Source of the DNA: a virus
Strand: one strand, 5' to 3'
Virus record (IMG/VR): IMGVR_UViG_3300045988_160259
Span: 64,001-128,000 of that record
DNA length: 64,000 nucleotides
Shown here: positions 918 through 51,501 of the stretch, piece by piece
Position numbering within the stretch: position 1 is the stretch's first letter
How the letters are laid out: every line of letters begins with the position of its first letter
Made by a program: the position numbers and the translations under genes
The notes under the pieces: generated by a model
What the model saw: the letters and a program-made list of their open reading frames with translations, nothing else
Databases searched by the model: none
Told to the model about the DNA's origin: nothing

Positions 918-1105
918 TTTGGATAAAAATCTTTGATCGGTACGAACCCGTACTATATGTACAGAAAGACACTTTGCGGCATATGACCGTCTTGTATGTA
1001 AGAACAAAAAATACAATGGTTGATGTATATATGAGTCTTGACGGTCGATTATTTGCAACAAGAAAATCTGTAAGAGAAGGAGGCAAGGGAATGTGTACAT
1101 TGTAG
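911..1105 (+). CDS. hypothetical protein (64 aa)
   Basis: ORF; ATG overlaps previous stop. Confidence 0.45.
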   Translation: MVIWIKIFDRYEPVLYVQKDTLRHMTVLYVRTKNTMVDVYMSLDGRLFATRKSVREGGKGMCTL

Positions 1106-1275
1106 CAAGTAATGGTGTAGAAACACAAGCCAGAAAATTAAAATCAACTGTTTCTGTTCCGAAAGCGAAAATGCTAGTAAGAAATTTACAGGATACAGAT
1201 TATCTCGGTTTAGAATACTGGTTGGAAGATGATAATGGGAATAAAATTGAAACGGATGTAATAAAACATGGTTGA
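1093..1275 (+). CDS. hypothetical protein (60 aa)
   Basis: GTG start about 9 nt after SD aggagg. Confidence 0.45.
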   Translation: MYIVASNGVETQARKLKSTVSVPKAKMLVRNLQDTDYLGLEYWLEDDNGNKIETDVIKHG

Positions 1276-8261: not shown

Positions 8262-8468
8262 ATGATGTTACGGTATGGAGAAAAATTAGATTTAGACAAA
8301 AATCTTTGGGACGCAATCGTCACATATATGAATGATGATATTCGAGAAGATGTGCATTTTGATCTTGCGCCATGTAGTGAAGAAGAATTCCTCGCTGCAT
8401 ACGCGAAGAGAGATCCGGAATTTGAAAAACTGCTGCATGAAGAGTTTGGAATAGAAATGGAGGAGTAA
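8262..8468 (+). CDS. hypothetical protein (68 aa)
   Basis: ORF; SD aaaggaga upstream. Confidence 0.6.
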   Translation: MMLRYGEKLDLDKNLWDAIVTYMNDDIREDVHFDLAPCSEEEFLAAYAKRDPEFEKLLHEEFGIEMEE

Positions 8469-35871: not shown

Positions 35872-36243
35872 ATGGATGTACATTGTGGCGAAGTTAAACG
35901 TGGTGAAATCTATTGGGTAGATTTCGGAAAAACAAAAGGATCTGAACAAGGGGGAAAACGACCAGCTCTTGTCGTCCAAAATAATATTGGAAATAAACAT
36001 TCTCCAACAACCATAGTCGTGACAATCACATCAAAAAGGAAGCCCAATCTTCCTACTCATGTCATTTTAGAAAAAGATGCGTTGAATGGATTAAGTTCCG
36101 ATTCGTTAGTAACATGTGAACAAATTAAAACAATAGATAAAGCTAGATTGTTGGATAAGATCGGAGAGATTAGTCCCAAAAAGCAAAAAGAAGTGAACAG
36201 AGCAATGCAGATTAGTTTGCAGACATTATTAATGGAGGGATGA
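35872..36243 (+). CDS. mazF: MazF/PemK/EndoA-family endoribonuclease toxin (second copy)
   Basis: GEIYWVDFGKTKGSEQGGKRPALVVQNNIGNKHSPTTIVVTITS...LPTHV...SLVTCEQIKTIDKARL...AMQISL is close to Bacillus EndoA/NdoA. Confidence 0.85.
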   Translation: MDVHCGEVKRGEIYWVDFGKTKGSEQGGKRPALVVQNNIGNKHSPTTIVVTITSKRKPNLPTHVILEKDALNGLSSDSLVTCEQIKTIDKARLLDKIGEISPKKQKEVNRAMQISLQTLLMEG

Positions 36244-37722: not shown

Positions 37723-38433
37723 ATGAGATACAAGTATTTAACAGAGACTCAAATAGAGAAATTAGAATCTCTTACGCCAGAAGAAGCAGAAAAAATTCAG
37801 CAAACGTATTTAGATGATGATATGCGTGAGCTTAAAAAAATCTGCAAAACTTTGATTTACAAAAAGAAAAAATCATCGCAGGATTTACCGACACTTCATG
37901 ATGCAGAACTTGAAAGCCTAGCAGTAGAAGTTTTTCTGTCAAGTTTACTCAAATATAATTCGGATGTCAAATGCACTTTTAAAACGTATTTATATGGAAA
38001 TATTTGGAGAAAATATTGGACATATACAAGAGATATCGAACGTAAAAAACGCTGTGTTTTTGTTCCAGATATTGATGAAGAAACTGGCAAGCAAAAAGTT
38101 GACAAAGAAGGAAATCCTAAAGAGAAGCCTGTATTTGATATCTCCATATATTCTCAAATCGATGAAAATGGAATGCAACTCTGGGAAACATTTGTATCTG
38201 GAAAAACCGTGGAAGATGTCGTCTTTCAAAATGATCAAGAAATGTCATCTGCGATGAGAGAATATACTAATAAGTTATCAAGAGTACAGAGTGTAATTTT
38301 ACATATGCTTGCAGATGGATTTAATGAAGAAGAAATTCTTCAGAATTTACATATTTCTAAGTCACTCTATAACGATAGCTTAAAAGCTATCCGGAACAAC
38401 TCAAATACAAGAATACTTAGGAGGGATTATTAA
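37723..38433 (+). CDS. sigma-70-family (ECF-like) RNA polymerase sigma factor
   Basis: Region-2-like LESLAVEVFLSSLLKYNSDVKCTFKTYLYGNIWRKYWTYTRD and region-4 HTH LSRVQSVILHMLADGFNEEEILQNLHISKSLYNDSLKAIRNN. Start moved from GTG 37714 to ATG after SD aaggtgg. Confidence 0.6.
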   Translation: MRYKYLTETQIEKLESLTPEEAEKIQQTYLDDDMRELKKICKTLIYKKKKSSQDLPTLHDAELESLAVEVFLSSLLKYNSDVKCTFKTYLYGNIWRKYWTYTRDIERKKRCVFVPDIDEETGKQKVDKEGNPKEKPVFDISIYSQIDENGMQLWETFVSGKTVEDVVFQNDQEMSSAMREYTNKLSRVQSVILHMLADGFNEEEILQNLHISKSLYNDSLKAIRNNSNTRILRRDY

Positions 38434-39935
38434 TGTTAGATGAATACAGAATCGAACAGATGGGCGTAGGAGCTTATGTTGATAGTATTGATGAGGAAGT
38501 TATTACTGTTGATCAGGCAGTCCAGAGAGCGTTTTGTTGGTCAAATGAAATGATCAATAATTTGATTTATAGTACTGTATCTCCAAAACGGATTTACATT
38601 CCAAACATTATTCTTGCAGAAGAAAAAAGAGAAGATGGGCTTACTACTACATACGTAGTGGACGGTGGTCAGAGAACCGAAGCGCTCAGACGTTTTGTAT
38701 TTGATGGGCATAAGATCTCTAAATCAATCCGGAATAGATATGTGACTTATCAAGGAAATAAACTGGATAAAAATGGAAAACCTATGAGAGATGAAAATGG
38801 AAAACTGATCAAAGAAATCAAAACATTTGATCTGGTTAATAAAACTTATAATGATTTTCCACCAGAACTGAAAAAGAGAATGAGATCATGTCAGTTGTCT
38901 GCTGCAATTTATCAGGAATGTACTCCAGAAGATACCTGCGATCTTGTCATGTTATATAACTCTACTATTCCAATGAATGTAAGCCAGAAGGCGTTTACTT
39001 ACATTGGTACATTTGCGGATAAAATTAAACGGATTAAAGATAATAATCGTTTTCTTAAAGATTGTACGATGCTGAATGAGTTAGACAAGAAAAAAGGCAT
39101 CTGGGAAAGAGTGATCATCGAATGCGTTATGGCGATGTTTCATTTAGAAGAATGGAAAAAGGCGCCAAGGGATATCTGCAAGTATCTTAATGAGAACGGA
39201 ACAGAAGAAGAATTTGATACACTGAACAAATACTTTAATATGTTAATTCCTTACGCAGATAAACTCGATCATACAGAAGTAGCTGAATTATTTGTGTCAA
39301 AAGATTTTATGGTATGGATGACTCTTATGAAAAGAGCCTTAGATGAAGGAGTTTCACCAGAAAATTTTGGAAAATTCCTGATTGCATTTAATGACATGAA
39401 AGAAATCAAAGTCAATGATACTGATTGGATTGAAATAGAACAGGATAAACACACAAAGGACAAGAAAGTAATTCAGCAGAAAATTGATTATTTACATACT
39501 TTATTAGTGGATTTTTTACATATTAAAGAGAATAAACATAATGAAGATGCAGAGAGCGAAAGTATCAAAGACTCATCAGAAAATTCAGAGGGTGAAGAAT
39601 CTGCAATCATTGGTGTTGATGATCGTATTGATCAGAATGATATTGATTTTGTACATACTCATGTAAATGAGAAAGTAGATCCAGACGACATCGAATTTTA
39701 CAACGAGTGTCTGCAGGATACAAAAGTGTCTGCAAATGTTTATCAGCAGTGTAAAACAGCGTTAATTGCATTGATGGTTTATGCAGCGCAGAATAATCAG
39801 GATCAGGAATTTGAACAGTGGATTGGAGAATATCAGAATGCAGATGATGAATATAGTTCCAATCAGGGTATTAATTTCAGATTCATGAAACGAGATTTTG
39901 AGAATTATCTTGTTAAAAATGGAAATGCAGCGTAA
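38433..39935 (+). CDS. DUF262 / DGQHR-like (ParB-superfamily) domain protein
   Basis: 500 aa; N-terminal VDQAVQRAFCWSNEMINNLI...YVVDGGQRTEALRRF resembles the DUF262 QR..W...DGQQR motifs. No C-terminal His-Me finger recognised; acidic C-terminal third. Confidence 0.55.
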   Translation: MLDEYRIEQMGVGAYVDSIDEEVITVDQAVQRAFCWSNEMINNLIYSTVSPKRIYIPNIILAEEKREDGLTTTYVVDGGQRTEALRRFVFDGHKISKSIRNRYVTYQGNKLDKNGKPMRDENGKLIKEIKTFDLVNKTYNDFPPELKKRMRSCQLSAAIYQECTPEDTCDLVMLYNSTIPMNVSQKAFTYIGTFADKIKRIKDNNRFLKDCTMLNELDKKKGIWERVIIECVMAMFHLEEWKKAPRDICKYLNENGTEEEFDTLNKYFNMLIPYADKLDHTEVAELFVSKDFMVWMTLMKRALDEGVSPENFGKFLIAFNDMKEIKVNDTDWIEIEQDKHTKDKKVIQQKIDYLHTLLVDFLHIKENKHNEDAESESIKDSSENSEGEESAIIGVDDRIDQNDIDFVHTHVNEKVDPDDIEFYNECLQDTKVSANVYQQCKTALIALMVYAAQNNQDQEFEQWIGEYQNADDEYSSNQGINFRFMKRDFENYLVKNGNAA

Positions 39936-39953
39936 AGAAAGGAAAATAATATT

Positions 39954-40436
39954 ATGCAGATGAACATTGAAGATATCAAAATTTCAGATCAGTTTCTTGC
40001 TTCTCATCCATCTTCAGAAAAGATGGAAAGATTCGAGAAATATTGGTTGCTGACGAATCATCAAGATAAGCCAATTGTTCTGGATAAGAATGGTTATCTT
40101 GTAGATGGATATATCCGTTATCTTATCATGAAAAGAAATGGTGCTAAGACAGTTCATACTGTGTATAAAGGCCAGCCTGTTGCACTGATTAATGGAGTAC
40201 ATATTCACGCTAATGGTACAACAAGCCAGGAATATACTTGGGAGATTCGTAGAAATAAGAACTGGAAATCTTTCCTTGGAAATCTCAAAGTTGGCGATTT
40301 AGTAATGTGTGCAACCAAATATGGATATAGTCCAGTGAAAGTTACAAGGATTCAAACAGAGAATATTGAAGGGGAAGTAAAACATAAAAAAGTACTTCTG
40401 AACAAAAGAGTGAATATCAAAACAGAAACCAAATAA
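39954..40436 (+). CDS. ParB-N/sulfiredoxin-like domain protein
   Basis: 160 aa; IKISDQF...KPIVLDKNGYLVDGYIRYLIMKRNG follows the ParB-N pattern (PI.v...g..l.DGhhR..a....G). Confidence 0.45.
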   Translation: MQMNIEDIKISDQFLASHPSSEKMERFEKYWLLTNHQDKPIVLDKNGYLVDGYIRYLIMKRNGAKTVHTVYKGQPVALINGVHIHANGTTSQEYTWEIRRNKNWKSFLGNLKVGDLVMCATKYGYSPVKVTRIQTENIEGEVKHKKVLLNKRVNIKTETK

Positions 40437-40452
40437 GAAAGAGGTGAGACGA

Positions 40453-40644
40453 ATGAAAAGGTTAGGAAAATATTCTGGAAAGGTTTACGAAGAACATGAG
40501 ATCCAGAATATGGATGAATGTGGAACAGTAATTACAGACGAACAGGCTGCAGATAAGGACTTTATTAAAAAACATCACATGTGTGATTTGGTACGGTGTG
40601 TATCATGCTTTGGTGTCCGACATCGAAGAGTTTCTTCTGAATGA
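40453..40644 (+). CDS. hypothetical protein (63 aa)
   Basis: ORF 40444-40644 trimmed to ATG after SD agaggtg. Confidence 0.55.
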   Translation: MKRLGKYSGKVYEEHEIQNMDECGTVITDEQAADKDFIKKHHMCDLVRCVSCFGVRHRRVSSE

Positions 40645-40657
40645 AAGACTGATTTCA
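40642..40657 (+). repeat. junction hairpin TGAAA-N6-TTTCA
   Basis: aTGAAAgactgaTTTCAt; TGA is the stop of 40453-40644, the last gene before the CRISPR locus. Confidence 0.7.
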
Positions 40658-40668
40658 TAGGAAAATAA

Positions 40669-40716
40669 ATACTATATATAGTGGTCGAGCAAAAATAAAA
40701 CCACTATATATAGTAT
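40669..40716. repeat. perfect 17-bp inverted repeat (hairpin/palindrome) upstream of the CRISPR array
   Basis: AATACTATATATAGTGG 40669-40685 pairs with CCACTATATATAGTATT 40700-40716; 14-nt loop tcgagcaaaaataa; no U-run after it. Confidence 0.8.
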
Positions 40717-40790
40717 ACATGGAAGAGCATTATGAGAAAGTTTGGCGACCAGATCATGATGATCTTCAAAAAGAGAAATTAATAGGTTGA

Positions 40791-40958
40791 GTTTTAGAGG
40801 AATGTAATTTTATATGGTTGCAAATCGATACTTTTCGCATTCTGTCCGTTGATGTCGTTTTAGAGGAATGTAATTTTATAGGGTTGCAAAACCGAAAAGA
40901 AAAGCAGAGGAGCAGTAGACTAGTTTTAGAGGAATGTAATTTTATAGGGTTGCAAAAC
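40791..40958 (+). CRISPR. mini CRISPR array, type-II-like repeats (3 repeats, 2 spacers)
   Basis: 36-nt repeat GTTTTAGAGGAATGTAATTTTATAGGGTTGCAAAAC at 40857-40892 and 40923-40958. The copy at 40791-40826 has 2 mismatches (positions 25 and 35). 30-nt spacers: GATACTTTTCGCATTCTGTCCGTTGATGTC (40827-40856) and CGAAAAGAAAAGCAGAGGAGCAGTAGACTA (40893-40922). Confidence 0.9.
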
Positions 40959-41201
40959 CTCAAAATAAAATAACTCTATAAAATTAAGACGTTAAATAAA
41001 AATAGACTTAGATTTAATCTACGTTATTACAAGAAAATATATTGATATATAACTCTAGTATCAAATTATATCGTTTAAATTTAAACATGCGTTACGTCTA
41101 ACTTTCTTGTCGCAAGTGATTTAAACATTGTGAACTTGTAATAACATTGTCAAAGAGTATTACCGACTATAAGTCGAGTTATTAATTAAAAGGAGAAAAT
41201 T
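40959..41201 (+). ncRNA. candidate tracrRNA / omega-RNA scaffold (anti-repeat plus structured region) between the array and iscB
   Basis: TAACTCTATAAAATTA (40971-40986) is complementary to repeat positions 15-30 (14 Watson-Crick + 2 G-U). The 243-nt non-coding stretch contains many short hairpins/palindromes, e.g. TAGATttaATCTA 41009-41021, GTTTAAATTTAAAC 41073-41086 and CGACTataAGTCG 41164-41176. Exact ends unknown. Confidence 0.6.
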
Positions 41202-42749
41202 ATGAAATATTTAGATTTTACTTTAATGGTAGATAAAAATAATAAACCATGTGTACCGATTTTAAACGGTAGAGCTGGTTATTTGCTTAGAAATAATAAA
41301 GCAAAAATTATTAATCATGATCCATTAGTAATAAAACGAATAGACGATTATAAGAGTGATTTTGAAAATAGGGATATTTTCGAGTTAAAAATTGATAGTG
41401 GATATTTGAACATAGGATTTTCTGTCAGTGATAATTATCATGAGTATTTAGCTGGACAAGTCGAATTATTAAAAGGAATGTCGGATAGATTAACAAATCG
41501 AAATGGATATCGAAGAACACGAAGATCCAGAATTAGGTACAGGAAAAATAAAAATGTTGATTACAAAACCATACATAATCAAACATATAAAAATGGAAAT
41601 GAAGAAGGATGGTTTGCTCCATCAATACAACATAAAATTGATTCACATATTCGTTTAATAGATAAAATTGCGTCATGGGTTCCAGTAGATAAGGTAATTG
41701 TAGAAGTTGCTAAATTTGATATCCAGATGATAAAAGCTTTAGCTGACGGGAAAGAAATATCAGGAAAAGATTATCAAAATGGAGAAATGAAAGGATATGA
41801 AAATGCAGCAGCTTATGTTAGAGATAGAGATAAACATACATGTCGGTTGTGTGGCGCAAATAAAAATGTTGTGATTGAAGTTCATCATATCCAACCGCGT
41901 TCAAAGGGAGGAACCGATAAACCAAGTAATCTAATATCTTTATGTCATAGTTGTCATCGGAAGGTGCATTCCAATAATAACGACAATAAATATTTTGAGA
42001 AAGTCAAGAGTATGAAGTTATCGGATACATACAAAGACAGTACTTATATGAATATGGTTCGTTGGGAACTTTTTGAAAGGCTTTCTGGCAAATATGACGT
42101 CAAAGTTGGGTATGGATATCAAACAAAAATTAATAGAAGGAATGCCGGTTTAAGAAAATTTCATTATACGGATGCTGTTTGTATTAATGATTACAAGGAT
42201 GTGACACTGACGGAGAATATCTATATTGTAGATCAAAAACGATGCAATGACAGGAGTATGGAGACATTTAGTGATGCAAAATACATAGATGTACGTGATG
42301 GAAAAGAAAAAAGTGGTAATACATTATATAAAGAAAGGCTTCCAAATGCTCCGTCTAAACGAGTCACACAAAAAGAATATATAAACAATATGAGACAATT
42401 TCGTGGTAAGAAAATTAAACCTGGTAAACGCACTTTTGTTTGTAATTCATATTGTTTGAAATGTGGAGATTTAATTTACATAAGTAGTGGAACGCATAAA
42501 GGAAATATCGCAGAAGTAGAATCCATGCAAAAACTACCTAATGGCAATTTCAAAATACGATTTACATATAAAGCACAAACAGTCAAATACCCTTCTATAA
42601 GTATAAAACCAGAAGAATATGAATTATTAAAGAGCAATTTATTAGACAAAGTAAAAATTGTAAGAACAAGGCGCGGAATGATTTGGAGAAAATATAATCG
42701 TCTAGAGTACGAAGCGACCCATACGGATCAAGAAGGAATGGCTGTATAA
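41202..42749 (+). CDS. iscB: IscB-like RNA-guided RuvC/HNH nuclease (CRISPR-associated, Cas9-ancestor architecture)
   Basis: 515 aa. PLMP-type N-terminus VDKNNKPCVPILNGRAGYLLRNNKAKII; RuvC-I LKIDSGYLNIGFSV (D65); Arg-rich bridge helix RNGYRRTRRSRIRYRKNK; GWFAPSIQHKIDSHIRLI...KVIVEVAKFD (RuvC-II E168); HNH CRLCG..EVHHIQPRSKGGTDKPSNLISLCHSCHRKVH; RuvC-III RKFHYTDAVC. Only about 45 aa separate the bridge helix from RuvC-II, so there is no REC lobe. SD aaaggaga upstream. Confidence 0.85.
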   Translation: MKYLDFTLMVDKNNKPCVPILNGRAGYLLRNNKAKIINHDPLVIKRIDDYKSDFENRDIFELKIDSGYLNIGFSVSDNYHEYLAGQVELLKGMSDRLTNRNGYRRTRRSRIRYRKNKNVDYKTIHNQTYKNGNEEGWFAPSIQHKIDSHIRLIDKIASWVPVDKVIVEVAKFDIQMIKALADGKEISGKDYQNGEMKGYENAAAYVRDRDKHTCRLCGANKNVVIEVHHIQPRSKGGTDKPSNLISLCHSCHRKVHSNNNDNKYFEKVKSMKLSDTYKDSTYMNMVRWELFERLSGKYDVKVGYGYQTKINRRNAGLRKFHYTDAVCINDYKDVTLTENIYIVDQKRCNDRSMETFSDAKYIDVRDGKEKSGNTLYKERLPNAPSKRVTQKEYINNMRQFRGKKIKPGKRTFVCNSYCLKCGDLIYISSGTHKGNIAEVESMQKLPNGNFKIRFTYKAQTVKYPSISIKPEEYELLKSNLLDKVKIVRTRRGMIWRKYNRLEYEATHTDQEGMAV

Positions 42750-42769
42750 ATAAGAAAAGAGGTGAAAAT

Positions 42770-42925
42770 ATGCTACTTACAATTTTAAGAATCATTCTAA
42801 TTATCTTCGCCTGGTTAAATCTAATTGAAGAGAAGCCAGAACGAAAAAGTGAAAAGGCTTTATGGATCACTATTATTGTAACTACTGTGGTTGAGCTAGT
42901 GTATAGCTTTTTCGGAATATACTAA
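42770..42925 (+). CDS. hypothetical small membrane protein (51 aa)
   Basis: SD aaagaggtg upstream; MLLTILRIILIIFAWLNLIEEKPERKSEKALWITIIVTTVVELVYSFFGIY (two hydrophobic helices). Confidence 0.5.
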   Translation: MLLTILRIILIIFAWLNLIEEKPERKSEKALWITIIVTTVVELVYSFFGIY

Positions 42926-42938
42926 CGGAGAATAGTAG

Positions 42939-43059
42939 GTCATGCGATTTAACATGCTTAAAAATGAGGTCGGAAATGGTTCCCGACGCACTCTGCAAAG
43001 AGTACCTGAGATGATGGATACGCCGCCCATCCATTTTTAGGCATTTCAAATCGCATGAC
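42939..43059 (+). ncRNA. structured non-coding element (multi-stem RNA or attenuator) downstream of the iscB locus
   Basis: Closing 12-bp helix GTCATGCGATTT 42939-42950 / AAATCGCATGAC 43048-43059. Inner hairpins: GTCGG..CCGAC, ACTCT-GCAA-AGAGT (GNRA loop), and ATGGAT-acgccgccc-ATCCAT followed by TTTTT. An alternative pairing of TAAAAATG 42959-42966 with CATTTTTA 43032-43039 competes with the terminator-like hairpin. Confidence 0.45.
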
Positions 43060-43127
43060 TGAAATATAAAACGCGATGAAAGGCACATTTCTTTAGAGAA
43101 TATATAAACAGAAAGAAGGAGTAAAAC

Positions 43128-43580
43128 ATGGCAAAAGAATTAACAGGCTATATAGCCGTAGCAGGAATTAATCTTATGGGGAAGGAAGAATATTTTGCAA
43201 TTTATAACGATGGCTATAAATACGAAAAAGGAGATAAAGTATTAGTTACTGGCCATCGTAGAGGTCAAATTTTAACAATTCAAAATATTCTTACGTTGGA
43301 TGATATGACGCATGTTCATGAAAATGAAAAAATCACACAGGAAATTGTTTGTAAAATCAACCCAAGCGCCATTGATATGACGGCCTACGAAGATCGAGAG
43401 AAAAGACGAAAAGAATTAGCAAAAATACAATATAAAAAACATCAGTTAAGACAAATGATGGATAATATTATTCAGTCAACAAAAGATGATAAAAAAGATG
43501 AGATTTTTGCAGAAACGAATCCAAGATTTGCAAAGCTTCTGGAAGAGTATAAAGAATTATCAAAAGAAGTGGAGGAGTGA
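43128..43580 (+). CDS. hypothetical protein (150 aa)
   Basis: ORF; SD gaaggag upstream. Confidence 0.7.
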   Translation: MAKELTGYIAVAGINLMGKEEYFAIYNDGYKYEKGDKVLVTGHRRGQILTIQNILTLDDMTHVHENEKITQEIVCKINPSAIDMTAYEDREKRRKELAKIQYKKHQLRQMMDNIIQSTKDDKKDEIFAETNPRFAKLLEEYKELSKEVEE

Positions 43581-43586
43581 TGAAAT

Positions 43587-44627
43587 ATGAGTTTCAAAGT
43601 AGGAGATATTGTAAGAGTTAAGGATTATAAAGACATTGATTGTTCTACTTTTGTGCCAAGTATGAAATGTTACTGTGGGCATAAATATATCATAACTGAA
43701 ATAACATTGTATTTTGATGGTAGTGCATATAAGTTAAATTGCGGTGCGGATTTTATATTTGAAGAAAAGTGTCTTGAAAAAGTTGTTGCAAACTTTGACT
43801 CAGGAAATAAAAATGATACATTTACATTCAACGCTAAAAAGGAGAACAAAGAAATGAGAAAACAGGAAGTAGGATTAACACAGAGGGAACGTATTGAAAA
43901 CAAAATGGAAGAGTATATCTATAAGTCTGGTGTATGCTCTGTCAATATCATCGTACCAAATCGAGTGGTGGAAGTGAATTTCGATGGTGATTTTTGGAAG
44001 AAAGTAAAAACAGTATGCGACAAAAATGATATCTTCTCTCTTGAAAGAGCATTATACATCGCATACGCAAAACGACAATATAATGACGTGTATACGACAG
44101 AAGGTATTGAGAAGCAAGCTGATGAGTTTAAATATAGAAAAATTTATGTATCTAAAGTCAAGAACGCTCTGAAAGTATATGAATGTCAGCAGAAGCTCGC
44201 TGCATTAGATAAAGAAGAGGAAGAAATTAAACTTCGTCAGAAACAGAAACGTCATGAGAGAAATGAACGACGTCGTGCAAGAAGAGCAGAAGAAGCAACT
44301 AAAAAAGAAGAAGAGAGAAGAAATGAACAGATTGCAATTCAGAAAGAAGCATATCTTCAGGCAATGATGGCGTTTGAAGAAGGAAAAAAGAAACTCGAAT
44401 CTAAAAAAGAAGAGGAAGAAAAACAGACCAAATCAACAAAAGAAATCGTAAAAAAGGTTGAAAAACTGATTTCTGATGCAGAGAATACTACAGAAGATAC
44501 AAAGGAAAATAAAGAACCAGAAAAAGCAGATGTAGTTGGTGAAAATAATAAAGAAGAAAGTTCGGAGAATAATGTAAAAGAAGAAACAACCAATAAGATG
44601 AAGAAAACAGAGAGCAAAGTAGAGTAA
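43587..44627 (+). CDS. hypothetical protein with Lys/Glu-rich C-terminal half (346 aa)
   Basis: ORF; SD gtggaggag upstream; the C-terminal 150 aa are low-complexity, charged and coiled-coil-like. Confidence 0.75.
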   Translation: MSFKVGDIVRVKDYKDIDCSTFVPSMKCYCGHKYIITEITLYFDGSAYKLNCGADFIFEEKCLEKVVANFDSGNKNDTFTFNAKKENKEMRKQEVGLTQRERIENKMEEYIYKSGVCSVNIIVPNRVVEVNFDGDFWKKVKTVCDKNDIFSLERALYIAYAKRQYNDVYTTEGIEKQADEFKYRKIYVSKVKNALKVYECQQKLAALDKEEEEIKLRQKQKRHERNERRRARRAEEATKKEEERRNEQIAIQKEAYLQAMMAFEEGKKKLESKKEEEEKQTKSTKEIVKKVEKLISDAENTTEDTKENKEPEKADVVGENNKEESSENNVKEETTNKMKKTESKVE

Positions 44628-44671
44628 AAGATAACAAAATAGAAGAAAAACATAAAGAAGGAGAAAATATC

Positions 44672-46735
44672 ATGTTAGATCAGTTCGTAATTTTTAAGGA
44701 GAAGCTTCAGAAACATTTCAATAAAATGTCCGCAAATGCAGATAAGTTATTCGAAGTGGACGTAGACAAGGAGCTGCTGTGGGATACATATCTCGATAGC
44801 TTTGCGCCAGGAACGAACAATATTTTTAGAGAGAGAAGAGAACATGACTGTACCTGCTGCCGCCAGTTCATTCGTACAATCGGCGCTGTGGTTGTAATCA
44901 AGGATAATAAAATGGAGAGCATCTGGGATGTTGATATGTCTGGAACAATCTATGATCCAGTAGTTAGAGCACTTTCAACACTCATTCACGAATCGAAAGT
45001 TGTTGATGTATTTGTAAGCTATTTCAAGAATATTGGCACAGATAAGAACTTTGAAATGATCAACGGAAAATCGCATCAGTGGGATCATTTCTATATGGAA
45101 CTTCCTACGAAATTTGTTTTTGATTCTTATAGATCTGTTGGAGAGATTCAAGGTGAATATAGGGATATCCGGAATGTGTTCAAACGTTCTCTTGACGAGA
45201 TTACTATTGATTCTGTAGAGACAGTTTTAGAGTTGATCAATTCTAATACCCTGTATCGTGGAACAGAATGGAAAGTTCCACTTGTAGAATTCAAGAAGTA
45301 TAAAACAGAATATGATAAACTTCCAGAAGAAGAAAAAGATTTGTATGTTTGGGAGAAATCTCTGAAAGCAGGAGCTGTTATTGGCAAAATCAGAAACCAT
45401 TCTATTGGAACACTACTTGTAAATGTAAGTGAAGGAATGGATCTTGATACTGCAGTTAAAAAATATGAGCAGATCGTAGCACCCAGCAACTATAAAAGAA
45501 GTAAACCAATTTATACTCAGAGAATGCTGGACGATGCAAAGAAAACTCTGACAGAACTTGGGTATATGGATTCTCTGAAGCGTCGCTTTGCAAATCTGGA
45601 TGATATCACAGTAAATAATATTCTATTTTCTAATAAAGATGCAGCGAAGAGAATTTCTGGTGGAGAAGACATTTTTACAGAGATGTCAAAATCTGTAGCA
45701 GTTAATCCAAAGAAATTCTCTAGAGTAGAAGAAGTGACTGCACAGGATTTCGTAGAAAAGGTTCTTCCGACTGCGAAAGAGGTTGAAGTATTTGTAGAGA
45801 ATAAACATGAAAAGAATTTTGTTTCTTTAATTGCGCCAGAAGATCCTGGTTCTAAGACGATGTTTAAATGGAGCAATGGTCTAAGCTGGGCTTATACAGG
45901 TAATATTACTGATTCTGACATTAGACAGAATGTAAAGAACGCTGGTGGAAATGTAGATGGAGTGCTTAGATTCTCTATTATGTGGAACGAGGAACAGAAT
46001 GACAACAGTGATCTTGACGCTCACTGTATTGAACCAAATGGTCATGAAATCTATTTTGGTAGTGATAGAAAACCATCTATGTCGAAACTTGGTGGTCAGC
46101 TTGATATTGATGTGATTCAGCCATATAGAGATATGCCAGGGAAGCCAGCAGTGGAAAATATTACATGGCAGGACAAATCGAGAATGATTCCTGGCGCATA
46201 CAGATTCTTTGTAAATCAGTATACCAACCGAGGAAGTAAAGGATTTAAAGCAGAAATTGAATTCGATGGCGAGATCTATTCGTTTGAATACAATAACCCA
46301 GTGCGTGGAGACGTAGACGTCGCAGAAGTAATTATGGATAAGAACGGAAACTTTACCATCAAAGAAAAACTTTTTGGTCACTCGGCTACTTCTAGTAGAG
46401 AAGTATGGGGAGTACAGACAAATCAGTTTACACCTGTATCTGTAATCAGTTACAGCCCGAACTATTTTGATGAGCAGAATGGAATCGGGAATAAACATCT
46501 TTTCTTCTTCCTGAATGGATGCGTAAATTCAGAACAGCCGAATGGTTTCTTTGTGGAATATCTTAAGAATGAATTAATTCCACATCGTAAAGTATTTGAG
46601 GCACTTGGCGCAAAGTGTAGTGTAACAGACGTCGATGATCAGCTCTCTGGAGTTGGATTCAGTCTAACGCAGCGTAATGAGCTTATCGTTAAAGTAAAAG
46701 GTGCAACAGAAAGAATCATTAAAATTAAATTTTAA
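44672..46735 (+). CDS. hypothetical protein (687 aa), largest ORF in the window
   Basis: ORF; SD gaaggaga upstream; no family recognised with confidence. Confidence 0.8.
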   Translation: MLDQFVIFKEKLQKHFNKMSANADKLFEVDVDKELLWDTYLDSFAPGTNNIFRERREHDCTCCRQFIRTIGAVVVIKDNKMESIWDVDMSGTIYDPVVRALSTLIHESKVVDVFVSYFKNIGTDKNFEMINGKSHQWDHFYMELPTKFVFDSYRSVGEIQGEYRDIRNVFKRSLDEITIDSVETVLELINSNTLYRGTEWKVPLVEFKKYKTEYDKLPEEEKDLYVWEKSLKAGAVIGKIRNHSIGTLLVNVSEGMDLDTAVKKYEQIVAPSNYKRSKPIYTQRMLDDAKKTLTELGYMDSLKRRFANLDDITVNNILFSNKDAAKRISGGEDIFTEMSKSVAVNPKKFSRVEEVTAQDFVEKVLPTAKEVEVFVENKHEKNFVSLIAPEDPGSKTMFKWSNGLSWAYTGNITDSDIRQNVKNAGGNVDGVLRFSIMWNEEQNDNSDLDAHCIEPNGHEIYFGSDRKPSMSKLGGQLDIDVIQPYRDMPGKPAVENITWQDKSRMIPGAYRFFVNQYTNRGSKGFKAEIEFDGEIYSFEYNNPVRGDVDVAEVIMDKNGNFTIKEKLFGHSATSSREVWGVQTNQFTPVSVISYSPNYFDEQNGIGNKHLFFFLNGCVNSEQPNGFFVEYLKNELIPHRKVFEALGAKCSVTDVDDQLSGVGFSLTQRNELIVKVKGATERIIKIKF

Positions 46736-47186: not shown

Positions 47187-47423
47187 ATGACGCAAGAAGA
47201 ACACGATCGAAAAATTCTTATTGAACGAGCAGCTGTAGAAGAACTTTTACTAAAAGAACATATTAGTGTTCCTACAGCGTATGAACGGGCCAGAGAATTG
47301 GAATACGAGAGAAAGAAATCTCTCTATTGGATGTGTCGATGCGATGGCACAGTAGCAGACGATGTATCGTTTGATGATTGGATAAAGAAATTTGATCAAG
47401 TAAGAGAGGAGAATAAACTGTGA
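47187..47423 (+). CDS. hypothetical protein (78 aa)
   Basis: ORF 47178-47423 trimmed to ATG after SD aaggtg. Confidence 0.6.
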   Translation: MTQEEHDRKILIERAAVEELLLKEHISVPTAYERARELEYERKKSLYWMCRCDGTVADDVSFDDWIKKFDQVREENKL

Positions 47424-47932
47424 AAACATTAATTGTTGTAGATGTACAGAATGATTTCGTAAATGGGAGCCTTGGATCGGAAGAAGCACAGGCGATCATT
47501 CCGAATGTAAAAAAGAAAATTGAGGAGTATTACAATCGTGGAGATCAAATTATCTTTACAAGAGATACGCATTATGACGATTACTTAAATACTCCGGAGG
47601 GAAGAAAACTTCCAGTAAAACATTGTATTTTTGGAACAAATGGATGGAAGGTTGTGAGCGACCTTGTGGTTCCTAACTGCAGATATGTAAACAAAAGTAC
47701 TTTTGGAATTTTGCAGTGGAGAAATATGACATGGATTGGAGATGGTGGTATCGATCTGGTCGGTTTGTGTACGGATATATGTGTAATTTCAAATGCATTA
47801 GTACTTAAAGCTATGTTTCCAAATACGGAAATTACAGTAGACGCAGGCTGTTGCGCGGGATCTACACCAGAGAGACATAAGGCAGCACTCGAAGTTATGA
47901 AAAGTTGCCAGATTAATGTGATTGGAGAATAG
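47420..47932 (+). CDS. pncA: isochorismatase-family hydrolase, probable nicotinamidase (PncA-like)
   Basis: KTLIVVDVQNDFVNGSLG (catalytic Asp), NKSTFG (Lys), VGLCTDICV (Cys); GTG start overlapping the previous stop. Confidence 0.7.
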   Translation: MKTLIVVDVQNDFVNGSLGSEEAQAIIPNVKKKIEEYYNRGDQIIFTRDTHYDDYLNTPEGRKLPVKHCIFGTNGWKVVSDLVVPNCRYVNKSTFGILQWRNMTWIGDGGIDLVGLCTDICVISNALVLKAMFPNTEITVDAGCCAGSTPERHKAALEVMKSCQINVIGE

Positions 47933-47936
47933 AGAT

Positions 47937-48752
47937 ATGATTACTTTAAATAGTAAAGAAGTAAAAGTAGAACACTTTCCAGATGGAACACAGAGAATCG
48001 TACTAGATGATTGTTTTTATCAGAAATATAACAACATTACATGGAAGTATGAAAAAGAAGAAGAACTTTCAACGCTGATTTATATTACAAAACATTTAAA
48101 AAATTTTCCATATATTAAATCAATTGATCTTACAATGTTTTATCTTCCGAATGCCAGAATGGACAGAATCTATGATCATGGCGAGGTTTTTACATTAAAA
48201 GGGTTCGCTGATGTTATTAATTGGCTCGAATTTGATAGAGTAGAGGTACTTGATGTTCATAGTAATGTTGGAGCAGCGCTTTTGAATAGAGTATATGTCT
48301 TTAATCCAAGAGAATATATTGATGAAGTAATTGAGCAGATTAGTAAAGAAAATCTTATTCTTTATTTTCCGGATGCCGGTAGTTCGAAAAGATATTCTGG
48401 ATTGTTTTCTGACATTCCGTATTGCTATGGTGAGAAAAATCGAGATTGGAATACAGGAAAAATTCTTGGACTCAAAATCAGAGATAACGGTATTGATCTT
48501 AAGGGTAAAAAAGTTTTGATGATTGATGACATCATTTCATATGGCGGTTCTTTATATTATAGTGCAAAAGCGTTGAAAGAACGTGGCATAGATAGAATTT
48601 ATGCTTATGCATCACATACCGAAAATTCAGTTCTTGATAGAGAAAAAGGAACATTAATCAAATCACTTGATGATGGAACAGTTGAAAGATTATTTACGAC
48701 AAATAGTCTTTTTACAGGAAAACATGAAAAGATCACAGTTATGGAGGTCTAA
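47937..48752 (+). CDS. ribose-phosphate pyrophosphokinase (Prs)-like protein; candidate ADPR-pyrophosphate synthetase (Adps) of NARP1
   Basis: N-terminal FPDGT..I and C-terminal GKKVLMIDDIISYGGSLYYSAKALKERGIDRIYAYASHT (PRTase/Prs nucleotide-binding loop). Start moved to ATG after SD ggagaata. Confidence 0.65.
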   Translation: MITLNSKEVKVEHFPDGTQRIVLDDCFYQKYNNITWKYEKEEELSTLIYITKHLKNFPYIKSIDLTMFYLPNARMDRIYDHGEVFTLKGFADVINWLEFDRVEVLDVHSNVGAALLNRVYVFNPREYIDEVIEQISKENLILYFPDAGSSKRYSGLFSDIPYCYGEKNRDWNTGKILGLKIRDNGIDLKGKKVLMIDDIISYGGSLYYSAKALKERGIDRIYAYASHTENSVLDREKGTLIKSLDDGTVERLFTTNSLFTGKHEKITVMEV

Positions 48753-48753
48753 T

Positions 48754-50226
48754 ATGAGAAACATTTCTTTTATGCTGATGGCAGACACATATAAAAATAC
48801 AAATCCAGATGCTCTTCCGGCAGGTCTTACAAAATTAACTTCCTATATTACTCCAAGAAAGTCAATGTTTAAAAATCTGAATGAAGTAGTGTTCTTTGGA
48901 TTACAGGGCTTTATTAAGGAATATATGATTGAATTAGCAAACGAAACGTTCTTCAAAAGACCAAAAGAAGAGGTTGTTGCTGAGTACAAAAAATACTTAG
49001 ATAATCAGATCGGTTCCCAGAGCTATGATCTTGGACGTATCGAAAAATTATGGGATCTGCAGTATTTACCTGTAGAGATCAAAGCTCTTCCAGAAGGATC
49101 TGTTGTAACAATGGGAGTCCCGTGTATCGAGATGAGTAACGCACATCCGGATTTCGCATGGACGGTACAATGGCTGGAATGCATTATGCAGTCTTTTATT
49201 TTTGGGACATGCAACTGGGCAACTGTAGGTCATAAATATAAAACACTTGCAAATGAATTTTACGAGAAAACTACAGATGGTGCTAATCCTGCAATGGCTA
49301 TGGCGGATTTTGGATTCAGAGGACTCGGCATTGAGAACGGAGTTCATGCAAGTTCTTCATGGCTGCTATCTTTCAATAAAACTTCTACAATTCCTGCAAC
49401 TCAGTATATTGATAAAATGTACGATGCGGATTGTGTTAAGAACCATATTGGTATTGGAGCAGTTAGCCTGGAACATGCAACCGTATGCAGTAATCTGGCT
49501 GTATGCGAGACAGAAGAAAATCTGTTAAGAAGATTACTGATTGATACATATAAGAATACATCTTTCAGTTATGTCTCTGATACATTTGATTACTGGAACC
49601 TTATTGACGAAACACTTCCAAAACTGAGAAAAGAAATTGAAGAGCATAATGGTAAATTCCTTGTACGTCCTGATAGCGGCGATATCGTTGAGATTTCAGT
49701 AAAAACTGTTCAGAAATTATATCAGCTTTTTGGTGGAACTGTAAACTCAAAAGGTTATAAGGAGTTAAATCCAAAAATTGGAATCATTTACGGAGATGGT
49801 TGTCAGTACAGTAAGATCAAAGAGATTTGGACACAGCTTGAAGGATTAGGATTTGCAGCAGATACGATTCTTTTTGGAGTAGGTGCGTTTTCTTTCTCTG
49901 CAATGTGTACGCCAGAAGATGGAATGGTTTGCTTAACAAGAGATACTTTTGGATTTGCAATGAAGAGCACCTATTGTGTAATTGATGGCAAAGAATATAC
50001 CATTCAGAAGAATCCAAAAACAGATAAAAATAATTTAAAGAAATCACATAAAGGTCTTTGCCGTGTTGTGAAAGAAGGTAATAATTTTGTATGCCATGAT
50101 GGATATACAGAAGATACGATTCCAGAAGAAAATGAATTAAAACTTATCTTTAAAAATGGAGAATTAGTAAAAGAGCAGACATTTGGAGAAATCAGAGAAA
50201 GACTGAATGGAGAAAGCTATGATTGA
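48754..50226 (+). CDS. nicotinamide phosphoribosyltransferase (NAMPT/NadV)-family protein; candidate Namat of NARP1
   Basis: LMADTYK, MADFGFRG, LVRPDSGD, IIYGDG and LFGVG are NAMPT-family motifs. Start moved to ATG after SD tggaggt (ORF track 48667). Confidence 0.75.
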   Translation: MRNISFMLMADTYKNTNPDALPAGLTKLTSYITPRKSMFKNLNEVVFFGLQGFIKEYMIELANETFFKRPKEEVVAEYKKYLDNQIGSQSYDLGRIEKLWDLQYLPVEIKALPEGSVVTMGVPCIEMSNAHPDFAWTVQWLECIMQSFIFGTCNWATVGHKYKTLANEFYEKTTDGANPAMAMADFGFRGLGIENGVHASSSWLLSFNKTSTIPATQYIDKMYDADCVKNHIGIGAVSLEHATVCSNLAVCETEENLLRRLLIDTYKNTSFSYVSDTFDYWNLIDETLPKLRKEIEEHNGKFLVRPDSGDIVEISVKTVQKLYQLFGGTVNSKGYKELNPKIGIIYGDGCQYSKIKEIWTQLEGLGFAADTILFGVGAFSFSAMCTPEDGMVCLTRDTFGFAMKSTYCVIDGKEYTIQKNPKTDKNNLKKSHKGLCRVVKEGNNFVCHDGYTEDTIPEENELKLIFKNGELVKEQTFGEIRERLNGESYD

Positions 50227-50725
50227 GATTATTGAAGGAAATTTATTTGATACAGATGCAAAATTTATTTGTCATCAGGTAAATTGTATGGGAAAGATGG
50301 GATCTGGCGTGGCTTTGCAGGTCAGACAGCGATTTCCACATGTATACGAAGAATATAAAAAGGTAGCATCATCGGATATGCTAGGGAAAGTACAAATTGT
50401 ACCAGTCAAGCCAAAATATATTGGATACGACTGTGGATCGATTGCGATTCCAAGTAATGAACAGTGGATTTGTAATTTCTTTGCACAAGATAACTATGGA
50501 TATGACGGAAAACAATATACTTCTCTGGAAGCATTAGAAAAGTGTTTTAGAACTATGTGTTGGAAAGCACATGAAAAGAACAATAATTTTAGTGCAACAA
50601 TTGCTATGCCATATAAGATCGGCTGTGATCGTGGTGGAGCAGATTGGGACGAAGTATATTCAATGATGCAGAAGATTTTTAATGAACTTGATACTCATGT
50701 TGAACTGTGGAAATTAAATCAGTAG
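50219..50725 (+). CDS. macro-domain (ADP-ribose binding/processing) protein
   Basis: IEIIEGNLFDTDAKFICHQVNCMGKMGSGVALQVRQRFP follows the macro-domain N-terminal pattern (G.l......ai.h..N..g.mG.GvA); alternative start 50207. Confidence 0.65.
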   Translation: MIEIIEGNLFDTDAKFICHQVNCMGKMGSGVALQVRQRFPHVYEEYKKVASSDMLGKVQIVPVKPKYIGYDCGSIAIPSNEQWICNFFAQDNYGYDGKQYTSLEALEKCFRTMCWKAHEKNNNFSATIAMPYKIGCDRGGADWDEVYSMMQKIFNELDTHVELWKLNQ

Positions 50726-50742
50726 AGGAGAGGAGAATAGAT

Positions 50743-51501
50743 ATGTATACTTTTGATGCAAAAGAAACAAAAAATAAGATTGTCGAGTGGATTAAAATGT
50801 TCTTTGAGCAGAATGGGAAAGATTGTATTGCCACAGTAGGTCTTTCAGGGGGTAAAGATTCAAGCATTGTTGCGGCTCTCTGTGTGGAAGCTCTTGGAAA
50901 GAATAGAGTTTTAGGTGTGCTCATGCCAGACGGAGAACAGACAGATATTGAAGATGCCTATGAAGTTGCTAAACATTTAGGTATTGAATACTGTACTGTA
51001 GATATTCATCCAGCAATTCTTGCGCTAAAGCACGAAATCAGACCACAAATTGGTGATCATTGGTCAAAACAGACATCAATTAATCTGCCTCCTCGAATCA
51101 GAATGGCAACACTTTATGCAATTTCACAGAGTATGAATGGACGAGTCGCTAATACATGCAATCTTTCGGAAACACTCTTATCTTGGGAAACTCGCTGGGG
51201 CGATGCAGTAGGAGACTTTGCACCATTAAAGGATTTCACAGTACAGGAAGTAAAAGCTATTGGATATGAGACGATTCTACTGAAAAAGATGGTTGACAAA
51301 ACGCCGTCAGACGGATTATGTGGATCTTCTGATGAAAGCGCTCTTGGATTTAAATATTCTGTATTCGATCGGTATGCAAGAACAGGTGAAATTGATGATT
51401 CTGCAGTAAAAGCTATTATCGATGCAAGGGTTGAAAAATACAGATTCAAGAGAAGACCAATTCCATATTTTGAAAGTGGTCTGAAATCATATTTAGACTG
51501 A
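50743..51501 (+). CDS. nadE: NH3-dependent NAD+ synthetase
   Basis: PP-loop VGLSGGKDSSIVAAL, RIRMATLYAISQ, NLSE...WGD..GDFAPL, and C-terminal KYRFKRRPIPYF as in NadE. Start moved to ATG after SD gaggagagga. Confidence 0.8.
   Translation: MYTFDAKETKNKIVEWIKMFFEQNGKDCIATVGLSGGKDSSIVAALCVEALGKNRVLGVLMPDGEQTDIEDAYEVAKHLGIEYCTVDIHPAILALKHEIRPQIGDHWSKQTSINLPPRIRMATLYAISQSMNGRVANTCNLSETLLSWETRWGDAVGDFAPLKDFTVQEVKAIGYETILLKKMVDKTPSDGLCGSSDESALGFKYSVFDRYARTGEIDDSAVKAIIDARVEKYRFKRRPIPYFESGLKSYLD

Follow-up and report, generated by a model that had tools for sequence, protein, structure and literature searches.

The window analysed here, 64,000 nucleotides (nt) of DNA corresponding to positions 64,001 to 128,000 of IMG/VR virus record IMGVR_UViG_3300045988_160259, is part of the ~209-kb Caudoviricetes genome of a jumbo phage from human gut metagenomes. 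On one strand, it carries a short CRISPR array, an anti-repeat, a structured RNA region and an iscB gene. The terminal repeat and the same-strand anti-repeat form a conserved, co-varying helix composed of a lower stem, an internal loop and an upper stem. When aligned with canonical omega-RNA, the repeat/loop/anti-repeat helix holds the exact position of the first stem (P1). Because repeat and anti-repeat co-vary across related loci, as does the scaffold that follows them, we regard the helix and the omega-RNA as real and under selection. It is likely that the locus is the guide-RNA gene of a CRISPR-associated IscB nuclease, and that it works in the manner proposed below.

The architecture of CRISPR-associated IscBs is said to have been published already by Altae-Tran et al. 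2021 (Science 374:57). Zhang et al. 2025 (PMC12660989) described DelIscB, an IscB of 457 amino acids (aa) encoded 3' of a non-coding RNA that contains spacers, repeats and a same-strand anti-repeat. A hairpin of direct repeat (DR) and anti-repeat precedes an omega-RNA-like scaffold in that RNA, and the system works with a truncated hairpin and is active both in vitro and in vivo. Its authors considered DelIscB a possible intermediate from IscB to Cas9 and raised the use of the upstream spacers as a question. The locus described here is a phage-borne member of this known group, and neither the idea of an intermediate nor the DR/anti-repeat hairpin is new.

Anatomy of the array and guide-RNA region

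The features of the locus, in 5' to 3' order, are the following.

40791-40826, + strand: repeat 1, 36 nt, the 5'-most 'extra' repeat, with two mismatches (T25, T35) and no spacer upstream
40827-40856, + strand: spacer 1 (GATACTTTTCGCATTCTGTCCGTTGATGTC), 30 nt
40857-40892, + strand: repeat 2, 36 nt, a perfect copy of the consensus GTTTTAGAGGAATGTAATTTTATAGGGTTGCAAAAC
40893-40922, + strand: spacer 2, 30 nt, the predicted cis (single-guide) spacer and, by the probable polarity of the array, the newest
40923-40958, + strand: terminal repeat, 36 nt, 5' strand of the P1-equivalent helix
40959-40970, + strand: loop CTCAAAATAAAA, the first 6-7 nt of which, CTCAAA[T/G/A], are conserved across the clade
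40971-40986, + strand: anti-repeat TAACTCTATAAAATTA, 3' strand of the upper stem, pairing with repeat nt 15-30
40987-40996, + strand: 3' side of the internal loop or bulge (AGACGTTAAA), placed by the fold of 40893-41201 and by lineage comparison
40997-41001, + strand: 3' strand of the lower stem (TAAAA), pairing with repeat nt 2-6
41003-41163, + strand: HEARO-type omega-RNA scaffold (Rfam RF02033), with a nexus hairpin, CUACGUUAU, a long-range helix and a CUCUAG hairpin
41164-41185, + strand: conserved 3' hairpin (CGACT-ATA-AGTCG) and U-rich tail, a terminator-like match whose 4-bp core co-varies (alignment columns 306-319)
41202-42749, + strand: iscB, 515 aa, with PLMP/RRXRR-RuvC, an HNH insert and a divergent C-terminal region

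A first-pass annotation of this DNA had recognized the core of the arrangement, and its coordinates and sequences are exact. The anti-repeat is the reverse complement of repeat nt 15-30 except at two G-U pairs, the other 14 pairs being Watson-Crick; it begins 12 nt 3' of the last repeat on the same strand, and the resulting hairpin has a loop of 18 nt. Within the terminal repeat, nt 2-6 contribute to the lower stem, nt 8-14 to the internal loop and nt 15-30 to the upper stem. The annotation had suggested just such a layout, which stands, but it had named GTTAAAT (40991-40997) as the partner in the lower stem. Fixed-register comparison of lineages puts 40997-41001 in its place, and GTTAAAT, on this alignment, belongs to the internal loop. 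The segment AGACGTTAAA may resemble the bulge and lower-stem region of Cas9 trans-activating CRISPR RNAs (tracrRNAs), as judged against the SpCas9 single-guide RNA (sgRNA) sequence. When the 64-kb window was searched for the 16-mer TAACTCTATAAAATTA with at most two mismatches, three sites were found against 0.32 expected: the anti-repeat itself and the two perfect repeats read on the opposite strand. The window contains a single array and a single anti-repeat.

Two structures lie upstream of the array. Between it and the terminator-like site of the upstream gene (40608-40628) there is a perfect 17-bp inverted repeat at 40669-40716 (ATACTATATATAGTGGT / ACCACTATATATAGTAT, 14-nt loop), reminiscent of the hairpins and terminators reported 5' of type II-C arrays (PMC12080349). 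A hairpin with the conserved loop motif (A)GTTTGGCGAC follows at 40722-40768; hairpins with this loop and differing stems occur 20-300 nt 5' of arrays in several lineages (L003 2429-2470, L016, L020), and may constitute an array-linked regulatory or insulating element. That GTTTGGCGAC is a repeated general phage promoter motif was ruled out, since it occurs only twice in the window.

The array insertion point is itself polymorphic, as seen when window positions ~40600-40790 are compared with loci L008-L013, whose IscBs are 97-98% identical. In the L008 group, repeat 1 directly follows ...CATGCTTTGGGTGTCC, which in the window forms the 3' end of the open reading frame (ORF) at 40444-40644, and the group lacks the ~170 nt of palindrome and hairpin region that the window and L007 carry.

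A clade of phage IscB loci with a co-varying repeat/anti-repeat helix

Related loci were collected from ENA and Logan assemblies; 28 came from IMG/VR (contigs of 6-222 kb, those of the clade mostly 80-220 kb), and 23 metagenome loci were retrieved by scaffold pattern. They define a clade of IscBs of 513-580 aa with at least 42% mutual identity, apart from the ordinary IscBs of 430-455 aa, to which identity is ~40%. Among them are 35 distinct arrays of one to at least eight repeats each. Wherever upstream DNA is present the order is kept: array, terminal repeat, linker starting with CTCAAA, anti-repeat, scaffold, iscB. As in other CRISPR-associated IscBs, the array lies 5' of scaffold and iscB on the same strand and a DR/anti-repeat hairpin is formed with the last repeat. 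Each locus has one anti-repeat, which in every lineage lies 12-30 nt from the terminal repeat. Three loci (L007, L081 and L086) have a single repeat together with an intact iscB, and both single- and multi-repeat states are found among 98%-identical loci.

Folding of 40893-41201 with RNAfold, a check that the first-pass annotation had called for, places the terminal-repeat/anti-repeat hairpin in both the minimum free energy (MFE) and the centroid structures. The z-score of the whole region is merely -1.8, however, and folding energy alone is weak evidence; because it proves little by itself, the helix was judged by comparative data. In 23 distinct homologous loci, the cognate duplex of repeat and tail has an energy between -11 and -24 kcal/mol; shuffles average about -8. 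Summed over 10 lineages, the cognate duplexes reach -178.7, compared with -95.3 +/- 12.5 (standard deviation) when partners are permuted, and none of 20000 permutations attains the cognate sum. The cognate tail ranks as the best partner in 7 of the 10 lineages, and second or third in the three that have near-identical repeats.

Covariation at the level of single base pairs, the second check proposed at the outset, gave the same answer. Ten of the 17 pairs of the upper stem show compensatory double changes; 90% of cells are paired in the upper stem and 89% in the P1 alignment overall, percentages inflated by the use of the best ungapped register for each sequence. This choice leaves the compensatory counts uninflated relative to controls in which the partner is slid. 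When it is slid by 1-3 columns, 32-57% of cells pair and the covariation score, 0.38 as observed, falls to 0.06-0.10; in 500 shuffles, the observed score was attained 0 times. The repeat varies from lineage to lineage and the anti-repeat follows it: TAATTTCAGAGGG occurs with TCTTCTGAAATTA, AAATTTATAGGTATCT with AGATACCTATAAATTT, and TAAATTCATAAGAT with ATCTTATGAATTTA. Upper stems range from 16 to 21 bp. In the lower stem, the partners of repeat nt 2-6(7) are the 5-6 nt that abut a conserved AUAGA on its 5' side, and A:U at position 6 becomes G:C in lineages whose repeat begins GTTTTGG (L027, L031).

Individual loci show variations on the helix. The middle repeat of a locus 84% identical to that of the window (L001, 2669-2688) is a 20-nt remnant from which exactly the upper-stem segment is missing. 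At 2711-2776 of the same locus, an alternative pairing is offered by the final spacer, whose last 9 nt (AGGCTGTAA) complement the linker and the start of the anti-repeat (TTACAGCCT). In L025 and L027, the tail that follows the terminal repeat (~2240-2296) contains anti-repeat-like segments as a tandem pair (ACACTTAAAAGTT, CCACTTAAAATTTAGG), and the MFE fold uses the second.

An omega-RNA scaffold with an exchanged first stem

Downstream of the helix, the window matches the HEARO model RF02033 with 47.8 bits (E = 1.1e-7), below the gathering score of 83; a canonical locus used for comparison scores 140.9 bits. The match aligns model positions 53-211, while positions 1-52 are absent. In the canonical locus, these 52 positions make up the P1 stem GUCAACUA...UAGUUGAC, followed at once by cAGcc, a segment that aligns to UAGAC of the window. 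The 3' strand of the window's lower stem (40997-41001) thereby falls at the same place as the 3' strand of HEARO P1.

The scaffold is supported by an alignment of 20 loci, in which RNAalifold finds 34 consensus pairs, 21 of them with compensatory changes. This co-varying structure lies directly 5' of iscB on the same strand and ends 17-40 nt before the start codon. At 41164-41185, shortly ahead of the iscB ribosome-binding site, the hairpin and U-rich tail probably mark the guide RNA's 3' end. One further element of the first-pass annotation was not borne out, namely a second, interrupted copy of the anti-repeat. The sequence in question, ATAACTCTAgtatcAAATTA, is literally present at 41049-41068, yet it belongs to a co-varying hairpin of the scaffold, supplying its apical loop and 3' strand, and the CUCUAG core does not change across all 20 aligned loci, however much their repeats differ.

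The effector is an IscB

Pfam assigns RRXRR (8e-34, residues 9-194) and HNH (1.7e-12, residues 214-257) domains to the 515-aa product, which has the architecture of an IscB and no recognition (REC) lobe. Its best PDB sequence matches are HfmIscB (1.4e-29) and OgeuIscB (1.3e-24), and solved IscBs align over residues 6-352. The 17 clade members compared all share residues D65, E168, H228/H229, H321 and D324, which align with the IscB motifs GIDPG, E, HH and HYxD; their catalytic roles are assigned by homology. With 515 aa, no Cas9 Pfam families and only a marginal PDB match to YnpsCas9 (5e-6), the protein does not classify as a Cas9. A copy of a near-identical cluster member in NCBI is labelled 'NinG recombination protein', and another database label is 'hypothetical'.

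Called genes from ~4 kb before the window to 3 kb past it, out of the ~209-kb genome, gave no Pfam match to cas1, cas2, csn2 or cas4. Nor was there a Y1_Tnp match among the called genes across the window, so the gene does not appear to reside in an IS200/IS605 element, and the guide position is taken by CRISPR spacers, not by a transposon flank.

Spacers, targets and polarity

Spacer 1 has a perfect protospacer (30/30) in viral contig L035 (IMGVR_UViG_3300029578_000169, 1242-1271, minus strand), inside an ORF of 2740 aa that resembles a tape-measure gene. L035 has a G+C content of 39.6%, and beyond the 30-nt spacer match it has no blastn or tblastx similarity to the window. Spacers of two relatives match the same ORF, one spacer of the L008 group at 30/30 and the newest spacer of L071 at 28/30. 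Another L071 spacer matches three further viral contigs at 31/31, and in a second lineage a spacer of L018 matches a sister phage at 27/30; two L011 spacers matched only their own array. Judging from these matches, interference with competing phages is the most likely biological role. Even loci with 97-98% identical IscBs differ in their spacers, of which they hold 0, 1, 2, 3 or 4, with almost no overlap.

The arrays record the direction in which spacers are gained. Related arrays share the 5'-most spacer and differ in all those nearer the scaffold (L022/L026, L030/L032), while in the pairs L016/L078 and L018/L083 one array has an extra spacer at its proximal end; L011/L071 is compatible with proximal gain, and no pair contradicts it. 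In 18 related arrays, mismatches to the array consensus average 4.3 in the first repeat, 0.73 in internal repeats and 0.44 in the terminal repeat, and gradients of repeat decay are visible in long arrays. By these comparisons, new spacers are shown to enter at the omega-RNA-proximal repeat.

Paired variants of one protospacer occur within arrays or between them (L031 spacers 3/4, 1880-1975; L034 spacers 2/3; L014 versus L017). The members of a pair differ at few, often every-third, positions, which suggests that one target gene was sampled more than once, from alleles that had diverged. Spacer 1 of L032, from the L030/L032 lineage, matches 21 of 23 nt in an iscB of the window type (L011 3920-3942); the match could be a coincidence (E = 0.004, with a small database) or could reflect targeting of a rival's IscB.

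Likeness to type II-A arrays

In their 36/30-nt repeat and spacer geometry and their ends, GTTTTAGAG...CAAAAC, the repeats of the window are by sequence type II-A-like. A degenerate, clade-wide repeat pattern recovered true type II-A loci in metagenome-assembled genomes (MAGs) of gut Firmicutes, and a search for near-exact copies of the window repeat found nothing in 185,579 species genomes. One such locus, L050, consists of cas9-cas1-cas2-csn2 and then an array whose repeat is identical to that of the window at 28 of 36 positions in the same orientation. Its leader ends ...ATTTGAG|GTTTT at the 5' end of the array, as is the case in II-A loci with similar repeats. ATTTGAG is the conserved leader end of group-1 II-A systems and is required for spacer integration (PMC5382924). 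The phage arrays possess the same motif in inverted form at the 3' end: CTCAAAT is its reverse complement, and CTCAAA[T/G/A] lies directly 3' of the terminal repeat in 27 of the 35 distinct arrays.

This arrangement raises the idea, attractive on sequence grounds, that a host type II integrase may act on the inverted leader motif. The loop would double as a leader, and Cas1-Cas2 supplied in trans would insert spacers at CTCAAAT, next to the omega-RNA-proximal repeat, which would automatically make the newest one the covalent single guide, so that an IscB weapon against rival phages, itself free of adaptation genes, would parasitize host CRISPR adaptation. A host type II system is deemed the most likely supplier because no Cas1-Cas2 is encoded nearby. 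The scheme as a whole is speculative and, in our estimation, rather doubtful; spacers are oriented relative to the motif as in II-C, not II-A, which is an ill fit for a simple II-A hijack.

Orphan mini-arrays in bacterial MAG contigs (L056, from an Oscillospiraceae MAG, ~1040-1250, minus strand; L051, 360-480 and ~4043; L058) end in CTCAAAAT and then an inverted partial repeat, and neither a HEARO scaffold nor an IscB gene lies near them. An ORF of 958 aa in L051 has such a unit on each side. The module of terminal repeat, inverted leader motif and anti-repeat may thus exist independently of IscB.

Proposed mechanism and alternatives

We propose that transcription of the + strand would yield one precursor made up of the II-A-like array (three repeats, two spacers), the 12-nt linker, the anti-repeat and a HEARO-type scaffold of ~180 nt, ending just before iscB. 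A single precursor is proposed because a scan of the window found no terminator-like site between array and scaffold, because there is one anti-repeat for one array, and because of the 3'-end hairpin at 41164-41185. The terminal repeat would fold onto the anti-repeat and rebuild the first stem of the omega-RNA, leaving spacer 2 covalently joined to the scaffold as a natural single guide. Such a covalent molecule had been put forward in the first-pass annotation, and it is soundly predicted because the helix occupies the P1 position. Use of the older spacer-repeat units upstream would require that they pair in trans with an anti-repeat belonging to a different scaffold molecule, probably once the duplex has been cleaved. 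IscB, with its RuvC and HNH sites intact, would cut DNA matching the spacer, the targets being other phages. Because spacers appear to enter at the omega-RNA-proximal repeat, the newest would always take the cis position.

Several points weigh against this proposal, beginning with the modest folding z-score and the choice of register already mentioned. A sigma-70 promoter scan performed at chance (4 sites against 4.6 expected). For spacer 2, which is predicted to be the cis guide, the 3' 21 nt have no exact match in IMG/VR, and the 3' flanks of four protospacers of the window lineage (TACGTCT, CGCATCT, AACAACT, GAAAATT) contain no consistent target-adjacent motif (TAM). That arrays can reach eight or more repeats, with the internal ones well kept, suggests a role for a trans (dual-RNA) mode as well, and one anti-repeat per transcript leaves the stoichiometry of that mode unexplained. 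Cis and trans modes may coexist. As to the TAM, the pattern NNC..CT was considered, being present in the first three flanks, and was rejected on the fourth, which breaks it.

In a fully Cas9-like, dual-RNA mode, the anti-repeat and scaffold would act as a tracrRNA for every repeat, with processing by a host RNase (for example RNase III), and the cis hairpin would be a matter of mere adjacency, or a site of processing or insulation. This alternative, which does not exclude the single-guide proposal, strikes us as somewhat improbable. It accounts well for arrays of eight or more repeats whose internal repeats stay near the consensus, for the assignment of the perfect target to the non-terminal spacer 1, and for an upper stem that at 16-21 bp is duplex-like, as in Cas9 systems. 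Yet the sole anti-repeat is tethered close to the terminal repeat in every lineage, so that intramolecular pairing should win. The sigma-70 scan found no convincing promoter for a separate tracr-like transcript, nor any embedded in the repeats; the single-repeat loci retain an intact iscB; and DelIscB functions with a single fused RNA (PMC12660989).

The first-pass annotation went further and saw in the locus a possible primordial intermediate between omega-RNA and the CRISPR RNA (crRNA):tracrRNA pair, in which the guide-proximal strand of the first omega-RNA stem was duplicated in tandem to give the repeats, and a CRISPR array was thereby born. The locus does have the appearance of an intermediate, an idea already published for DelIscB (PMC12660989), and the repeat sits where the 5' strand of HEARO P1 would be; single-repeat, omega-RNA-like states coexist with multi-repeat states among 98%-identical loci. 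Birth by stem duplication, on the other hand, is weakened on several counts, and we hold it to be unlikely. The repeat sequence, the 36/30 geometry and the ATTTGAG-type motif match derived Firmicutes II-A systems (28/36 to L050), and the repeats are unlike the canonical P1 (GUCAACUA). The nearest relatives outside the clade (~40% identity) are the ordinary IscBs of 430-455 aa, and L042, the sole such locus examined, combines a full-length HEARO omega-RNA with a Y1 transposase gene beside it. The single-repeat loci are most simply explained as collapsed arrays. Judged from these sequence comparisons, the capture of a type II module, or co-evolution with one, is no less likely than the de novo birth of an array, and it appears more likely that an IscB scaffold secondarily recruited a module of type II array and anti-repeat.

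A strong stem-loop directly 5' of a structured leader and of the iscB start could also be a regulatory element, such as an attenuator, a terminator or an insulator of iscB translation, and no part of a guide RNA. We find this very improbable: no U-tract follows the hairpin, which co-varies specifically with the repeat sequence and is continuous with a lower stem placed as in omega-RNA P1, and spacers of the array match foreign phage DNA. Chance complementarity in AT-rich DNA (the region has ~25% G+C and a modest folding z-score), or a decaying, non-functional array relic, is scarcely credible, being refuted by the covariation and permutation tests and at odds with spacer turnover among near-identical phages, perfect protospacers and invariant catalytic residues.

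Relation to known systems

DelIscB came from an estuarine metagenome, whereas the present clade is found on viral contigs from gut samples; the two are compared by description only, and the portions of PMC12660989 drawn on here make no mention of a II-A-like repeat, an inverted ATTTGAG loop motif, a polarity of spacer gain or anti-phage targets. Relative to canonical IscB and its omega-RNA (HEARO, IS200/IS605), the protein architecture and catalytic residues are the same, the 3' 160 nt of the RNA align and co-vary, and the guide lies 5' of the scaffold. The differences are that repeat, loop and anti-repeat stand in for P1 (model positions 1-52), that several exchangeable guides take the place of one derived from the flank, and that the Y1 transposase present in the canonical locus L042 has no counterpart found in the window.

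Type II-A Cas9 loci are alike in their 36/30-nt units, in the GTTTTAGAG...CAAAAC ends, in the spacer-repeat polarity of the crRNA, in helix geometry and in the ATTTGAG/GTTT junction motif. They differ in that here the effector is an IscB, the anti-repeat follows the array directly in cis, the leader motif is inverted at the 3' end, and no cas1, cas2 or csn2 is found in the window. The S. pyogenes long tracrRNA, 'tracr-L', has a natural sgRNA-like fold and represses the cas promoter by means of a short fixed guide. The intramolecular fold of repeat-like and anti-repeat segments is similar in the two; the cis guide of the phage locus is instead an acquired spacer. In type II-C systems, acquisition proceeds through the last repeat, and the first, 'extra' repeat is mutated (PMC12080349). 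The same polarity is seen here, where the transcription-distal last repeat gains spacers and the first is the oldest and most mutated, and it is hence not unprecedented; the phage locus differs in having no evident repeat-embedded promoters, II-A-like repeats and an IscB effector. Mini-CRISPR arrays borne by viruses and engaged in inter-viral conflict are short, lack adjacent adaptation genes and have spacers that match other viruses (PMC11656645). The present phage, by contrast, brings its own effector and tracr-like scaffold, and the term IscB does not occur in that review.

These loci add a well-populated natural clade, spread over dozens of phage genomes with one to at least eight repeats, to the few CRISPR-associated IscBs described, and comparative data provide covariation at base-pair level for helix and scaffold that is beyond the reach of a single characterized example. 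Three questions posed in the DelIscB paper can be turned into experiments: whether the RNA is in one piece or two, how upstream spacers are used with one anti-repeat per transcript, and how spacers are gained without Cas1-Cas2. Should the inverted II-A leader motif prove functional, it would tie IscB arrays by mechanism to the type II adaptation of the host and offer a new explanation for the prioritization of the newest spacer. In practical terms, the clade may supply nucleases of small size (515 aa) whose natural sgRNA-like scaffolds are defined. Features that merit experimental follow-up are the II-A-like array, the inverted leader motif of the loop, spacer gain at the proximal end and the anti-phage targets.

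Phage genome and neighbourhood

The same IscB protein is found on an ENA contig of 208,682 bp (ERZ27250497 k119_106364). Among INPHARED phages, megablast of 38000-46000 and blastn of nine concatenated spacers gave no match. Genes adjoining the iscB locus match phage families of unknown function, and no tRNAs were found in the window. The surrounding ~70 kb hold many small ORFs, toxin-antitoxin pairs and other conflict or accessory functions. A GmrSD_N (DUF262) protein is encoded ~1.3 kb upstream of the array, with two small ORFs between, and the region also contains a PemK toxin with a helix-turn-helix partner, an AcrIC5-like ORF, DNA methylases and Lar. A cluster for NAD+ salvage (isochorismatase, NAPRTase/NAMPT, Macro, NAD synthase), typical of gut jumbo phages, lies around the locus as well. 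The positions of these conflict and accessory genes are given jointly.

38433-39935, 35872-36243, ~8262-8468 and 47420-51501: conflict and accessory genes

About 210 nt past the iscB stop, at 42959-43039 on the + strand, the window contains a full-length skipping-rope RNA (RF02924; 74.9 bits, E ~1e-16), the sole Rfam family in the window that scores above its gathering score.

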